A stretch of 33,480 nucleotides of DNA from the IMG/VR virus record IMGVR_UViG_3300028591_000144; one strand, 5' to 3'. A program made the position numbers and the translations under genes. Of this stretch, positions 7,403 through 15,560 are shown one piece after another. The notes beneath the pieces were generated by a model, which had not been told where the DNA came from, did not search any database, and saw only the letters and a program-made list of their open reading frames with translations. Numbering within the stretch: position 1 is the first letter of the stretch; each line of letters starts with the position of its first letter. The stretch comes from a virus.

Positions 7403-7726
7403 ATGTTTGAAAACATCAATAAGCACTCCGCTGGTTTCTTCGCTGTTGACATCGCTAATCTTGCCACTAAAGTGGGGGCCTTGTATGAAACTGCCAAAGC
7501 CCATTATGATGAAGTGTACACCGCCCATCCCGATGACTCCGATGATGAAGCCTTTGACCTTTGGTACGATGAGCAGGATGAAGCTTTTGAGTCTTATGAA
7601 ACCTTTTCTCAGCTTGTAGACTTGATCGATGATATCAAAGAGTTGAATGTCGACAGCTGGGAAGAGCTTAGTGCAAAACTCGATCTTCTGGCTGACGCTG
7701 TCGAAAGCTTAGGTTTAGACGATTAA
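7403..7726 (+). CDS. highly acidic small protein (107 aa), DNA-mimic-like composition
   Basis: ORF track. SD GAAAGGAC. D/E-rich. Confidence 0.65.
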   Translation: MFENINKHSAGFFAVDIANLATKVGALYETAKAHYDEVYTAHPDDSDDEAFDLWYDEQDEAFESYETFSQLVDLIDDIKELNVDSWEELSAKLDLLADAVESLGLDD

Positions 7727-7734
7727 CTCTAACA

Positions 7735-7761
7735 GGTAGACGGAACGCCTTAAAGACTCCG
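7735..7761 (+). promoter_or_regulatory. box B copy 7
   Basis: Exact 27-mer. Confidence 0.75.
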
Positions 7762-7800
7762 CAATTTTATAAAATACATTTTTGAAAGGATTCTCTTATT

Positions 7801-7989
7801 ATGACAACTAAAACTTTTATCTTTATTGTAGGCGATCATGAATTCATTAGCAATGAGCCTTTTGGCCCTATGTTTAAAGAGGCTCGCCAGCTTGCTAATG
7901 ACCTCAGTCTTCCTCTTTATAGAAAGAAGATTGAAGAATCTTTAGATGAATACCATCCCCAGTCAGGCTTCTTTACTGCCGTAAAATAG
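7801..7989 (+). CDS. hypothetical protein (62 aa)
   Basis: ORF track. SD GAAAGGAT. Confidence 0.6.
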   Translation: MTTKTFIFIVGDHEFISNEPFGPMFKEARQLANDLSLPLYRKKIEESLDEYHPQSGFFTAVK

Positions 7990-7998
7990 AGAACTAAA

Positions 7999-8025
7999 GG
8001 TAGCCGGAACGCCTTAAAGACTCCG
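7999..8025 (+). promoter_or_regulatory. box B copy 8 (GGTAGCCGG variant)
   Basis: One substitution relative to consensus. Confidence 0.7.
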
Positions 8026-8064
8026 CAATTTTATAAAATACATTTTTGAAAGGAAGTAAACAAA

Positions 8065-8286
8065 ATGGATAACAACATGATCCTCATTATAATTGATGAA
8101 TGTGGTGACGAGGTTGAGGTTGACCGCTACTGCCTTCAGCTTGACCTTGATGAAGACGAGTTGGAAATCTGGAAAGCTCGAAAGGTCCAGCAAGCCTATG
8201 AGCATTATCCAGAAGCGCGGGGCTTCTACTGGGAAGACCGCCGCAACTGGAACATGCTGATTGCAGGCATGCTTCACTGGATGTAA
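8065..8286 (+). CDS. acidic small protein (73 aa)
   Basis: ORF track. SD GAAAGGAAG. Confidence 0.6.
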   Translation: MDNNMILIIIDECGDEVEVDRYCLQLDLDEDELEIWKARKVQQAYEHYPEARGFYWEDRRNWNMLIAGMLHWM

Positions 8287-8287
8287 A

Positions 8288-8317
8288 AAGGCCGGGGGTA
8301 ATACCCCGGCTTTTTTT
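8288..8317 (+). terminator. rho-independent terminator
   Basis: ggccggggg-taata-ccccggc + T7. Confidence 0.85.
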
Positions 8318-8325
8318 ATTTTCAA

Positions 8326-8363
8326 CCGCACGTGCTGGGTAGGGCTGGGCAGCAAAAGCCGAG
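8326..8363 (+). repeat. Module-A G-triplet box copy 8
   Basis: Canonical sequence. Confidence 0.75.
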
Positions 8364-8547
8364 TTCCTTCTTTAACAAATAAACCAAAAAATACAAAAAT
8401 AAAAGTAGATAAAACCAAGAGAAAAGAAAATTCCTATAATTAAAATTACTATGTGCAAAAAGCCCCTATTTACTGGGCTTTTGGAGATTCTTCAAAAAAA
8501 ATATTGCAAAAAAAATTTTTTTGATATAAGTTGTAATTGTCCTCAGC

Positions 8548-8569
8548 AAAAAAAAAAAAAAAAAAAAAA
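8548..8569 (+). repeat. A22 homopolymer in 5' UTR
   Basis: 22 consecutive A between module-A promoter and leader hairpin. Paralogous leaders carry mixed sequence here. Confidence 0.8.
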
Positions 8570-8613
8570 TGAAAGTCCTGCGGTGAGGACAGCAGGCAGA
8601 AAGAGGTTGCCCT

Positions 8614-8949
8614 ATGCGTAAAATGCTTCATAACATCCGTTCCCTGCGTGCTTCTATCCTCAATGAGATGCGTGAAATTCAGCCTATTCTCGATGCCCGT
8701 GAGGAAGCTTATAATGCTGTCCTCAGCCGTGAGCCGGACGAGTCTCTTCCTGATTCTGACCCTATCGTGGTTGCGTGGGATAAAGAGTATGAGATCACTC
8801 GTGATGCATACAAAAATGTCGAAATGCGCTATGACGAGCTTGATTATCTGGCAAAAGCCCTTAAGGACGTTATCTCTCATCATGTTAGTTGGATGTATGA
8901 CCACCACGTTGAGGGATTTAACTGGGACGAACTTGGCAAATCATTCTAA
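8614..8949 (+). CDS. hypothetical protein (111 aa)
   Basis: ORF track. SD AGAGGTTG. Confidence 0.6.
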   Translation: MRKMLHNIRSLRASILNEMREIQPILDAREEAYNAVLSREPDESLPDSDPIVVAWDKEYEITRDAYKNVEMRYDELDYLAKALKDVISHHVSWMYDHHVEGFNWDELGKSF

Positions 8950-8956
8950 GCATACA

Positions 8957-8983
8957 GGTAGACGGAACGCCTTAAAGACTCCG
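8957..8983 (+). promoter_or_regulatory. box B copy 9
   Basis: Exact 27-mer. Confidence 0.75.
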
Positions 8984-9016
8984 CAATAATTTAAAATTAA
9001 AAAAGGAGTAAAAAAC

Positions 9017-13769: not shown

Positions 13770-13783
13770 AAGGAGATAAAAAA

Positions 13784-14062
13784 ATGAATTATTACACAAT
13801 TTACAACGATGAAATCCTGACTGATGCTGGAGATGCAATTTTTGATCTTGAATCTGAAATTGAATATCTGGATATTACCCCCGAAACTTACTATGCTCTG
13901 CTTGATCTTATCAAAGAAGAGACTCAGGATTATCGGCCTGCGGACTGCGTAGACTGGTATGACGATGATGATGTAAACTCTGCTGTTGCTATCGCAATCG
14001 AAATTTCTGATTGGTGTAAAAAATTCTTTAAAGAATATGAACACCTGATCGCTGAAATCTAA
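13784..14062 (+). CDS. highly acidic protein (92 aa)
   Basis: ORF track. SD AAAGGAGATA. Confidence 0.7.
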   Translation: MNYYTIYNDEILTDAGDAIFDLESEIEYLDITPETYYALLDLIKEETQDYRPADCVDWYDDDDVNSAVAIAIEISDWCKKFFKEYEHLIAEI

Positions 14063-14107
14063 ATAATATACAATCCCCATGTATAAATATACAGGGGGAA
14101 TCTTTGC

Positions 14108-14145
14108 CGCTCCGGACACCAATGTGCGCACTGGTGTCCGGAGCG
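14108..14145 (+). repeat. hairpin-C family member (14-bp perfect stem)
   Basis: cgctccggacacca-atgtgcgc-tggtgtccggagcg + TCTTTTA. Confidence 0.7.
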
Positions 14146-14231
14146 TCTTTTAAGTATCAAATCTGTGATGCAATTTTATTGACAAAAGTGCTTGTTAAAT
14201 ATTTAACTATTAAAATCCTGGAAATTTATTC

Positions 14232-14260
14232 TTGACTTTTGGTGTAATGTATGTTATATT
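14232..14260 (+). promoter_or_regulatory. sigma70-type promoter TTGACT-17-TATATT
   Basis: Hexamers read from sequence. Confidence 0.7.
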
Positions 14261-14291
14261 ATATATGAAATTTCCAAGAGGTAAAAGAAGT

Positions 14292-14696
14292 ATGACTATT
14301 AGATATGCTACTCAAGCAGATCAAATCCATATTATTAGATCAATTCAAAATAAACATATGGATTTTAATACTGTTGAAGATGTCAAAAATGATATTGCCT
14401 GCGGTAACTTGATTGTTGCTGAAGATCAAGGAAAGTTACTTGGTTCAATAGTTGTAAAATATAAGCCACATCGAAATTACTATGCAATTATGCGAGGATG
14501 CGTCTATAATAAAAAAAATTATGGGAAAAGGATAATGAGTGCATTAATTGATTATGTTCTCGCCCTTAATCTTGGAACCTATGGGGCTACTCCGTGGAAC
14601 GACAATCCTGCAATCATTAAAGTATTTCAAAAACGTGGTTTTCAATATCAGTATACTTTTAATGAAAAATATGATTTTTATAAAAAAAATGCTTGA
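14292..14696 (+). CDS. putative GNAT-like N-acetyltransferase (134 aa), very AT-rich
   Basis: SD AGAGGTAAAAG. Beta-alpha pattern and NYGKRIMSALIDYV segment resemble acetyl-CoA-binding motif A. Weak. Confidence 0.5.
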   Translation: MTIRYATQADQIHIIRSIQNKHMDFNTVEDVKNDIACGNLIVAEDQGKLLGSIVVKYKPHRNYYAIMRGCVYNKKNYGKRIMSALIDYVLALNLGTYGATPWNDNPAIIKVFQKRGFQYQYTFNEKYDFYKKNA

Positions 14697-14723
14697 CTTT
14701 TAAATAAAGATATAATATATAAT
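14693..14723 (+). promoter_or_regulatory. sigma70-type promoter (TTGACT overlaps upstream stop codon)
   Basis: TTGACT at 14693, TATAAT at 14718. Confidence 0.55.
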
Positions 14724-14752
14724 ACAGACAGGATCAAGAAAGGAGATACAAA

Positions 14753-14863
14753 ATGGGTTGGGGTTGGATTTGTGTGATAACTGGAATCTTAGTCTTTGGA
14801 ATAGCTTGGTATATTGATATTGTAAAACCACAGATTGATAAAATTTGTAAAAAAAATAAATAA
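14753..14863 (+). CDS. small membrane peptide (36 aa)
   Basis: SD AAAGGAGATAC. Single hydrophobic helix. Manual ORF. Confidence 0.5.
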   Translation: MGWGWICVITGILVFGIAWYIDIVKPQIDKICKKNK

Positions 14864-14906
14864 TAAAAAATAGAAGGAAGTAAACAGTTACTTAAATAAA
14901 TACATA

Positions 14907-14956
14907 GAGCGTCTTAAAGACGCTCCGTTTGCGTCTCACGCCAAGCAAACGGAGCG
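14907..14956 (+). repeat. hairpin-C family member with upstream alternative arm
   Basis: Arm gacgctc (14919-14925) can pair with upstream gagcgtc (14907-14913) or with downstream ggagcg in the 12-bp main stem. Confidence 0.65.
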
Positions 14957-15041
14957 AGTTTCGTTTATAGTCAAAATGACCAAAAATTTCATGACAAAAC
15001 CCCGGAGTTTTATGCAATTCATAGAATCCTGGAAAACAGTA

Positions 15042-15070
15042 TTGACATATTTTAAAAATTGCGGTATAAT
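15042..15070 (+). promoter_or_regulatory. sigma70-type promoter TTGACA-17-TATAAT
   Basis: Hexamers read from sequence. Confidence 0.8.
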
Positions 15071-15114
15071 GGGCTTGCCCGATGAGGGAAAGAACAAAAA
15101 ATAAGGAGATCATT

Positions 15115-15285
15115 ATGGATAACATGGCATTCGAACTGATGGAAGCAGAAAACACCATTCAGGAAGATTGGGAAAGATGGAAAGATGAATATGAAGATTT
15201 TGAAGAAGATATGGCAACAAACCCTTATGCCCCTATTGATGATATTGACTATGATATTGCAATTCATCCTTGGGACTATATTTAA
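15115..15285 (+). CDS. acidic small protein (56 aa), paralog of 11920-12078
   Basis: SD AAGGAGATC. Confidence 0.7.
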   Translation: MDNMAFELMEAENTIQEDWERWKDEYEDFEEDMATNPYAPIDDIDYDIAIHPWDYI

Positions 15286-15305
15286 TAATAAAGGAGAATC
15301 TACTA

Positions 15306-15560
15306 ATGAGCTGGACAGATATGTATGATACTCTTCACCTTAATGTTGGTGTAAGTAAAGAAGCCCTTGATCTTGCTTTTGGGCTTAATGGTTGCTCTGA
15401 AGAGACTGCCTGCGATATCCTCCGATATTATACTGGATATAATGACTTTGATCAGTATTTTGATTATGAGTCAGATGATGAAGAAGATTGCCTTGACGAG
15501 CTTTTCAATCTTGATGAAGGATTTGATCCTTATACAGGTTGTTATACCTACGATTGCTAA
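15306..15560 (+). CDS. highly acidic protein (84 aa)
   Basis: SD AAAGGAGAATC. Confidence 0.7.
   Translation: MSWTDMYDTLHLNVGVSKEALDLAFGLNGCSEETACDILRYYTGYNDFDQYFDYESDDEEDCLDELFNLDEGFDPYTGCYTYDC

Follow-up and report, generated by a model that had tools for sequence, protein, structure and literature searches.

What are the small, strongly acidic proteins encoded by the viral record IMGVR_UViG_3300028591_000144, and do their genes form a cluster of anti-defence DNA mimics, as an earlier note on positions 7403 to 15560 proposed? The window analysed here is the whole stretch of 33,480 bases, and carries about 86 small genes, arrayed without exception on the + strand; their median length is about 70 amino acids (aa). 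The acidic open reading frames (ORFs) are real genes under purifying selection, and their acidic products are a property of a fraction of the genes across the 33-kb array, neither one cluster nor one family. The reading we favour, at about even chances, is that these products are small inhibitors of separate evolutionary origin, made early and in abundance from a host-takeover or accessory array, at least some of which block the nucleic-acid-binding site of a host protein by a carboxylate surface. Small acidic ORFans in phage early regions are already known, and DNA mimicry is the standard hypothesis for them; the families found here are new in sequence, and are unusually numerous and extreme for one region.

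Charge of the encoded proteins

The ten acidic ORFs named earlier all translate as written, and the acidic runs quoted for them are present. The claim of far more Asp and Glu than Lys and Arg is confirmed by the counts in all ten, from 17 against 1 to 19 against 9, and the sizes given as 50-125 aa measure 52-125 aa. The net charge per residue lies between -0.14 (the genes starting at 8065 and 10853) and -0.31 (11920). The ten genes are as follows, with the counts of acidic (Asp and Glu) and basic (Lys and Arg) residues separated by a slash and the net charge given per residue.

7403-7726, + strand: acidic gene, 107 aa, 29/5, net -0.22; second gene of the operon 6861-8286
8065-8286, + strand: acidic gene, 73 aa, 17/7, net -0.14; last gene of the operon 6861-8286
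10853-11230, + strand: acidic gene, 125 aa, 32/14, net -0.14
11920-12078, + strand: hyper-acidic gene, 52 aa, 17/1, net -0.31; paralogue of 15115-15285
13784-14062, + strand: hyper-acidic gene, 92 aa, 25/5, net -0.22
15115-15285, + strand: hyper-acidic gene, 56 aa, 19/2, net -0.30; first gene of a two-gene operon
15306-15560, + strand: hyper-acidic gene, 84 aa, 22/2, net -0.24, 6 Cys; second gene of that operon
24359-24559, + strand: acidic gene, 66 aa, 19/9, net -0.15; C-terminal EEEE tail
26385-26576, + strand: hyper-acidic gene, 63 aa, 18/3, net -0.24
31506-31751, + strand: acidic gene, 81 aa, 21/7, net -0.17; third gene behind the promoter 31128-31156

Six further strongly acidic genes had been overlooked.

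17426-17995, + strand: 189 aa, 42/11, net -0.16
18180-18374, + strand: 64 aa, 17/3, net -0.22
20850-21026, + strand: 58 aa, 15 acidic and no basic residues, net -0.26
28387-28656: 89 aa, 22/5; paralogue of 17426-17995
28872-29093, + strand: 73 aa, 19/5, net -0.19
29756-29992: 78 aa, 24/10; like 28872-29093 in kind

The acidity is not a by-product of base composition, since a net charge per residue of -0.13 or below is reached by none of 56 alternative-frame ORFs and by none of 578 ORFs from shuffled sequence. As a reference we used 69 small annotated coding sequences from the terminal redundancy of SPO1 and from positions 1-30 kb of T5. Charges of -0.13 or below are found in 19 of the 86 window genes against 3 of the 69 reference genes (Fisher p = 0.002), and charges of -0.20 or below in 8 of 86 against 0 of 69 (Fisher p = 0.009). 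The 116 aa of Ocr of phage T7 include 34 acidic and 6 basic residues, which amounts to about -0.24 per residue (PMC3439906). The charge had been said to match that of known mimics, and five of the seven ORFs between 7403 and 15560 indeed lie between -0.22 and -0.31; an Ocr-like acidic excess is displayed by the products of 7403, 11920, 13784, 15115, 15306 and 26385.

The description of these genes as a cluster holds only loosely. Extreme acidity is enriched between 7403 and 15560, where 5 of 18 genes reach -0.20, against 3 of 68 elsewhere (p = 0.009), with the qualification that this threshold was chosen post hoc and that two of the five are paralogues. At -0.13 the corresponding proportions, 7 of 18 and 12 of 68, do not differ significantly (p = 0.11), and the acidic genes as a whole span positions 6195 to 31751. 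An all-against-all BLASTP comparison of the ten proteins finds them mutually unrelated except for the pair 11920/15115, with 80% identity. A discrete acidic island at 7403-15560 is thus weakly supported, and was not adopted.

Coding status of the acidic ORFs

Relatives of the window are metagenome contigs only: L001/L002, L003, L004, L005 (one end of a 61-kb contig) and L007-L009; we take their STEW19 and WILK20 labels to denote cattle-rumen assemblies. Ratios of non-synonymous to synonymous substitution rates (dN/dS) were calculated by the Nei-Gojobori method against orthologues in L001 and L005. They amount to 0.13 for 7403 (against L001), 0.12 for 8065, 0.17 for both 11920 and 13784, and 0.03 for 26385 (against L005). 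Two of the overlooked genes behave alike: 20850-21026 has a ratio of 0.06, and 18180-18374 has an orthologue in L005 with 97% identity and a ratio of 0.04. The comparisons contain 6-28 synonymous differences per gene, and the acidic genes occupy the same range of dN/dS as their non-acidic neighbours. Orthologues are kept in at least six independent contigs; those in L005 share 73% identity with 10853-11230 and 85% with 15306-15560.

In all ten acidic ORFs the chosen start is an ATG with an AGGAG-like site upstream, and the same holds for the array at large, where genes start with ATG and AGGAG-like Shine-Dalgarno sites precede nearly all of them. The manual gene list agrees with 76 of the 79 calls of an independent automatic gene caller. 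The start of 15115-15285 deserves separate mention. A Shine-Dalgarno site precedes the ATG at 15115 and none precedes 15082, while the database calls P0012, P0013 and P0015 of the same family, 86-90 aa long, start 34 codons upstream (MQFIESWK…) and cross the promoter. The Shine-Dalgarno site and the alignment of the paralogues indicate that the form of 52-56 aa is the real product of this family.

Families and conservation of charge

The statement that none of the acidic proteins is recognisable by sequence stands, as they have no match in Pfam, among named PHROG families, in NCBIfam or among sequences in the PDB. A Pfam scan of the ten ORFs at E <= 0.1 returned neither the Ocr nor the ArdA family. 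Across all 86 products, Pfam matches at E <= 0.001 are limited to a GNAT acetyltransferase and a zinc ribbon, with no Ocr family and no helix-turn-helix (HTH) domain of the kind that an aca-type regulator would carry, and an NCBIfam scan yielded nothing relevant. The ArdA profile matched neither the ten ORFs (Pfam, E <= 0.1) nor the 86 products (Pfam and NCBIfam). Similarity to anti-CRISPR proteins was absent from the NCBIfam scan of the 86 products and from the PDB sequence searches, in which no dedicated anti-CRISPR library was used. When nine acidic proteins or families were compared by phmmer with all PDB chains, no match was significant, and an exact-sequence look-up of 7403-7726 retrieved no record. 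A pairwise BLASTP match of 7403-7726 to the A2 protein of T5 (E = 6e-6 over 60 aa) was rejected in view of an hhalign probability of 1.2%, about 6000 implicit comparisons and the lack of PHROG support.

Among 5.8e9 proteins, the acidic families have 2-8 close homologues each: 7403-7726 has two, and the 52-56-aa family of 11920 and 15115 has eight. For 13784-14062 there are three close homologues and four distant ones, the latter from a profile search of 1.84e9 representatives with six matches; P0008, a protein of 915 aa with ten matched stretches in that search, suggests a repeat or compositional match and was not counted. Members of the 13784 family at 30-47% identity retain net charges of -0.18 to -0.27, and their alignment has 9 invariant columns, 15 acidic columns and no basic ones. 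The charge is thus kept while other positions diverge, and selection appears to act on the charge itself. Correctly started members of the 52-56-aa family range from -0.27 to -0.33 and share an invariant C-terminal motif rich in aromatic residues and proline, PYAP.D..DYDIA.HPWDY.

A possible further branch of this family occurs in L004, where a 54-aa protein is present in two copies (4165-4329 and 6149-6313 of that contig; net -0.30 and -0.35) that flank a gene of the 13784 family (5048-5380). The 54-aa protein is a probable distant homologue of the 52-56-aa family (hhalign E = 1.3e-4, probability 54%). Its layout mirrors that of 11920, 13784 and 15115 in the window, so the duplicated layout seems to be conserved.

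Predicted structure

The AlphaFold2 model of the 7403-7726 product is a confident one (pLDDT 84, pTM 0.71) and consists of three helices, at residues 3-40, 48-79 and 86-103, with a PDDSD loop at the tip of the hairpin. In helices 2 and 3 of the model the acidic residues are placed about 180 degrees from the hydrophobic face; helix 2, with 32 residues, has 12 acidic residues opposite that face. A long exposed acidic stripe is predicted as a result. A mimic is defined by two properties, of which DNA-like spacing of charges is one (PMC3902945). The model is that of a generic helical hairpin bundle, neither the Ocr nor the ArdA fold, and its best Foldseek neighbours, at E = 0.26 in the PDB and E = 0.13 in BFVD, are not significant.

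Promoters of the acidic genes

The early-promoter context cited by the earlier note is sound as far as the promoters are concerned: the genes between 11.9 and 15.6 kb lie behind near-consensus sigma70-type promoters, from 10/12 with an extended -10 TG to 12/12. Such near-perfect TTGACA-17-TATAAT promoters, often with the TG, occur from about 11.8 kb on. Between 6 and 33.5 kb the + strand has 8 sites at 12/12 and 12 at 11/12, against a single site on the - strand. The genes 11920 and 13784 and the operon 15115-15306 are each located directly behind one of these promoters. Terminator-like hairpins are likewise in excess (25 and 16 observed against 9.5 and 7.4 expected). The signals that accompany the acidic genes are listed here.

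6726-6754, + strand: promoter-like site TTGCAA-N17-TAAGTT of the operon 6861-8286
8285-8316: terminator after 8065-8286
10719-10747: promoter-like site TTGCAA-N17-TAAGTT upstream of 10853-11230
11838-11866: promoter TTGACT-17-TATAAT of 11920-12078, 11/12
13505-13533: promoter of 13784-14062, 10/12 with TG
15042-15070: promoter of the operon 15115-15306, perfect 12/12
15623-15661: terminator hairpin after 15306-15560
17362-17390: promoter of 17426-17995
24299-24327: promoter of 24359-24559, 11/12 with TG
26231-26259: promoter of 26385-26576, 11/12 with TG

Proposed function and alternatives

From the charge, the promoters and the conservation described above we infer early timing, binding to host proteins and mimicry. 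The acidic proteins would be several unrelated small folded proteins, helical where a prediction is available, made early and abundantly, with at least some of them acting stoichiometrically. A dense carboxylate surface would occupy the basic site at which a host protein binds nucleic acid, in competition with DNA or RNA. Possible targets are a defence nuclease, the kind of protein blocked by Ocr, ArdA and some anti-CRISPRs, and equally a housekeeping protein such as RNA polymerase, HU, uracil-DNA glycosylase or a nuclease of the RecBCD/AddAB type. The characterised acidic mimics of SPO1 target housekeeping proteins and show no homology to the proteins described here; a charge-mimic inhibitor is therefore a fair hypothesis, with anti-defence as one of several possible targets.

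Several points weigh against this interpretation. The early timing is read from promoter sequence only, and the binding partner is a proposal. Searches of Pfam, NCBIfam, the PDB and Foldseek reveal no similarity in sequence or fold to any known mimic; the fold predicted for 7403-7726 is so generic that it is uninformative on function, and the AlphaFold2 model of 13784-14062, although helical, has a low confidence (pLDDT 61) and is too poor for a fold search. High acidity by itself is a weak predictor of function, and the reference comparison comprises two phages. The attribution to a large virulent phage draws on the architecture, the PHROG hits and a tRNA gene, and termini, replication genes and structural genes were not recovered.

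The special case put forward in the earlier note, that the proteins are anti-defence DNA mimics blocking restriction-modification, BREX or CRISPR in the manner of Ocr, ArdA, AcrIIA4 or AcrF2, we regard as possible and rather unlikely. Its premises of small size, Ocr-level charge (PMC3439906), absence of sequence matches and strong promoters, which unmodified host polymerase could recognise, all hold. Several unrelated acidic families are present in one phage. Their location in a cassette array that varies in content from one close relative to another is what would be expected of arms-race genes. Against the proposal, there is no homology with Ocr, ArdA or solved anti-CRISPR structures, as the Pfam models of the first two, the anti-CRISPR and antirestriction models of NCBIfam and the solved structures gave no match, and an aca-like HTH gene is missing among the 86 products at Pfam E <= 0.001. 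In the SPO1 module, the closest studied analogue, the characterised acidic mimics hit housekeeping targets (PMC8892312, PMC8208478).

About equally likely as an anti-defence role is that the acidic proteins are not mimics, and act as adaptors or regulators through specific protein contacts, for example as anti-sigma-like factors, as adaptors of proteases, as inhibitors of cell division, or as partners and chaperones for the very basic small proteins that the phage itself encodes. Their acidity would then serve solubility or charge complementarity with a partner. Small proteins of very basic character (pI above 9.5) are also numerous in the array (e.g. 16741-17067, 20486-20656 and 20681-20830), and the last of these directly precedes 20850-21026, whose product lacks Lys and Arg. 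The motif PYAP.D..DYDIA.HPWDY of the 52-56-aa family looks like a docking motif rather than a diffuse charge surface. Acidity is also combined with other domains: 17426-17995 joins an N-terminal CPFC...CPxC zinc ribbon (phrog_20898) to an acidic tail, and its paralogue 28387-28656 shares this arrangement. The SPO1 module itself includes non-mimic effectors, such as a protein resembling a ClpCP adaptor (PMC6873191). On the other hand, the net charge is kept across strong divergence with most other positions free, which argues that the charge itself is functional, and charges this extreme are absent from the T5 and SPO1 reference sets.

That the ORFs arose by chance or by mis-annotation in AT-rich DNA and are unexpressed, as might be supposed from their shortness, the lack of database annotations and the 245 ORFs of at least 40 aa that can be drawn in the window, is effectively refuted by dN/dS values of 0.03-0.17 with many synonymous differences, by consistent Shine-Dalgarno sites and ATG starts, by the absence of comparable charge from the 56 alternative-frame and 578 shuffled ORFs, and by orthologues in at least six independent contigs.

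The proposed small inhibitors comprise at least six unrelated, evolutionarily maintained proteins of Ocr-level charge, together with the duplicated 52-56-aa family, all short enough to be synthesised and screened. Should any of them prove to bind, in a Gram-positive bacterium of the gut or rumen, a defence nuclease, HU, RNA polymerase or an enzyme of repair, it would represent a new inhibitor family and a reagent; should none bind anything, the array would be just another ORFan-rich early region.

The gene array and its regulatory repeats

The array consists of lineage-restricted genes of an uncultivated phage, and is divided into numerous short transcription units in which promoters match the sigma70/sigmaA consensus, Shine-Dalgarno sites are strong and terminators are hairpins. 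Such an organisation is that of a region for host takeover or early accessory functions in a large virulent phage with a host of the Gram-positive type. About 12 of the 86 products match any PHROG, all of unknown function except the GNAT acetyltransferase 14292-14696. No Rfam families were found in the window. Against 50,697 phage records, megablast of the window gave no match and blastn a single one, 311 nt at 65% identity to an unannotated faecal phage contig. Scans of IMG/VR with two window proteins and the repeat, scans of GTDB genomes with the GNAT protein and the repeat, and a tblastn search of plasmids and phages with the conserved window protein 16741-17064 were all negative. With no useful match among phage records, IMG/VR, GTDB and plasmids, the genome type and the host are fixed by inference only.

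The first part of the array is organised differently from the remainder. Between 0.3 and 11.3 kb a distinct unit is repeated, in which a terminator hairpin is followed by a G-tract motif (GTGCTGGGTAGGGCTGGG), then an A-rich stretch, another hairpin and the site TTGCAA-N17-TAAGTT. Within it, a composite terminator-promoter repeat, D5 (287-10747), comprises a hairpin, AAAAAAATA and then TTGCAA-N17-TAAGTT, and heads each operon in the first 11 kb. There are ten copies of hairpin, A-tract and promoter-like site, eight of which match TTGCAA-N17-TAAGTT. Since this sequence differs from the TTGACA/TGnTATAAT type found after 11.8 kb, it may mark a different temporal class.

1088, 3323, 4269, 5345, 6726, 8504, 9611 and 10719: the eight near-identical TTGCAA-N17-TAAGTT promoter-like sites, each just after a hairpin
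2042, 3145, 5166, 6547, 8324, 9431, 10539, 11276 and 11590: copies of the G-tract motif CCGCACGTGCTGGGTAGGGCTGGGCAGCAAAAGCCGAG
13383-13422, 15623-15661, 16385-16422, 17114-17150, 18021-18059, 22906-22942, 30245-30285 and 32838-32876: copies of a GC-rich hairpin family
26135-26215: tRNA-Ser (anticodon CGA), embedded within the small-gene array

The G-tract motif is about 40 nt long; its copies come directly after terminators and precede each operon promoter by about 150 nt. The GC-rich hairpins, with stems of 15-17 bp and a shared core (…TTTGCGCGCG…CGCGCAAA…), are located between promoter units and are followed by only weak T-tracts. Runs of 20-24 consecutive A occur in 5' leaders just upstream of the ribosome site, at 8545-8570 and 11884-11907; they could be slippage-prone tracts or translational enhancers.

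The G+C content declines from 43-51% at the left end (1-3000) to 28-35% in the right half (18000-31000), and the GC skew is positive across the whole window. By its G+C content, the left end may have a different origin or belong to a different expression class.

Besides 11920/15115, within-window paralogue pairs with 43-77% identity include 17426-17995/28387-28656, 18409/19696, 18872/20119, 21618/21869, 4613/5898 and 19898/29756. The stretches 17401-17685 and 28365-28649 are 77% identical as DNA, with the promoter included. The array therefore grows in part by local duplication.

Located among the acidic genes, the GNAT acetyltransferase 14292-14696 is the most conserved gene of its neighbourhood, with 96-97% identity in L005 and L007-L009 and a dN/dS of 0.04; it has no sequence match in the PDB. 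The anti-CRISPR AcrVA5 is a GNAT enzyme, which provides a lead only for this gene. A hydrophobic micro-ORF of 15-16 codons with a good Shine-Dalgarno site occurs in two copies, at 6425-6472 and 12094-12144 (MLTIIIFMILGSLFD and MLTIIIFFILGSLFEA), the second of which comes directly after 11920-12078, a hyper-acidic gene; no copy was found in the related loci.

The intercistronic element and cassette turnover

What is most unusual in the window is an intercistronic element with the cassette behaviour around it, rather than the proteins. The element is an invariant sequence of 25-27 nt, (GG)TAG(A/C)CGGAACGCCT(T/A)AAAGACTCCG, of which TAGACGGAACGCCTTAAAGACTCCG is a stretch.

1613, 2944, 4850, 6134, 6373, 7339, 7737 (7737-7761), 8001, 8959, 10093, 10388 and 11242, + strand: the twelve copies of the intercistronic element

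All twelve copies are on the gene strand, where none is expected by chance, and are positioned about 10-15 nt after a stop codon, either within an operon or past its last gene. Seven related loci (L001-L005, L007 and L008) contain 16 further copies with differing flanking genes, again after the stop codons of small and often acidic genes. The element has no Rfam match at the gathering score, nor at E <= 1 beyond chance. A stable RNA fold is not supported for the element, nor a consensus structure for the G-tract repeat: the RNAalifold energies are -3.0 and -1.2 kcal/mol, with no supporting covariation. The element could be an RNA-processing site, a protein-binding site or a recombination substrate.

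Cassettes bounded by the element are gained, lost or replaced between relatives. The gene 7801-7989 is missing in L001/L002 together with one repeat unit, and the junction falls inside a 57-nt repeat. In L001 the gene 6861-7328 is swapped for an unrelated gene of 128 aa, exactly between the leader and the intercistronic element. The relatives as a whole are mosaic, sharing some genes at 60-100% identity and differing in gene content and order. The contig of L005 ends where its array starts, which is no more than suggestive of a terminal location of the array.

A further-reaching and distinctly improbable interpretation would make the array a phage-borne system of shufflable cassettes, each with a single gene for an acidic inhibitor of Ocr-like charge, among them several new families of DNA mimics, and delimited by an element serving as the site of a dedicated endoribonuclease or recombination function. 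The endoribonuclease would cut the polycistronic early mRNA into units at the element, or recombination would take place there. Relatives would then exchange cassettes with correct expression kept, an integron-like or PeSL-like logic for counter-defence genes in a phage of the Gram-positive type. The cassette architecture may in any case show how phages trade such genes.

Comparison with known systems

Ocr (gp0.3) of T7 resembles the 7403-7726 product in its small size, extreme acidic excess and largely helical structure, with 34 acidic and 6 basic residues in 116 aa against 29 and 5 in 107 aa. The window protein differs in having no sequence match to Ocr, in its host type and in its predicted fold, a simple three-helix hairpin bundle where Ocr forms an elongated helical dimer mimicking bent B-DNA.

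ArdA, the antirestriction protein of plasmids and transposons, is acidic, is expressed early on entry and blocks Type I restriction enzymes by mimicry. It is distinguished from the proteins of the window by its length of about 165 aa, its three domains and a Pfam family of its own. AcrIIA4, AcrF2, Ugi of PBS2 and p56 of phi29 are acidic phage proteins of 50-90 aa that occupy a DNA-binding site, and are similar in size to the products of 11920, 15115, 15306 and 26385. These products, in contrast, have only chance-level matches to solved chains (E <= 1), and no aca-type regulator is nearby.

The cassette organisation resembles that of the PeSL cassettes in the hyperplastic regions of T4-like phages, where terminator-promoter repeats flank small ORFans, and indels and replacements map to the repeats (PMC2839356, PMC4122927). 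The D5 repeats likewise flank small ORFans, with one cassette indel and one replacement seen against L001/L002. The two systems differ in motif sequence and phage lineage, and the invariant 25-27-nt element between cistrons is not part of the PeSL description.

In the host-takeover module of SPO1, the small early genes have promoters and ribosome sites suited to very high expression (PMC8892312), and two acidic members have been shown experimentally to be DNA mimics that act on host proteins, Gp46 on HU and Gp44 on RNA polymerase (PMC8892312, PMC8208478). No SPO1 or T5 protein is homologous to the window products, and tblastn of the 86 products against positions 1-14000 of SPO1 gave no match at E <= 0.01. 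The likeness to the SPO1 module (gp37-gp60) is one of organisation: an array of small genes whose units each have a sigmaA-type consensus promoter together with strong ribosome binding, several of the genes encoding acidic proteins. Gp46 computes to a net charge of -0.14 per residue. Compared with the SPO1 module, the array of the window is about three times longer and lies entirely on one strand, and genes at -0.20 or below make up 8 of its 86, against 0 of the 21 small coding sequences in the SPO1 terminal redundancy.

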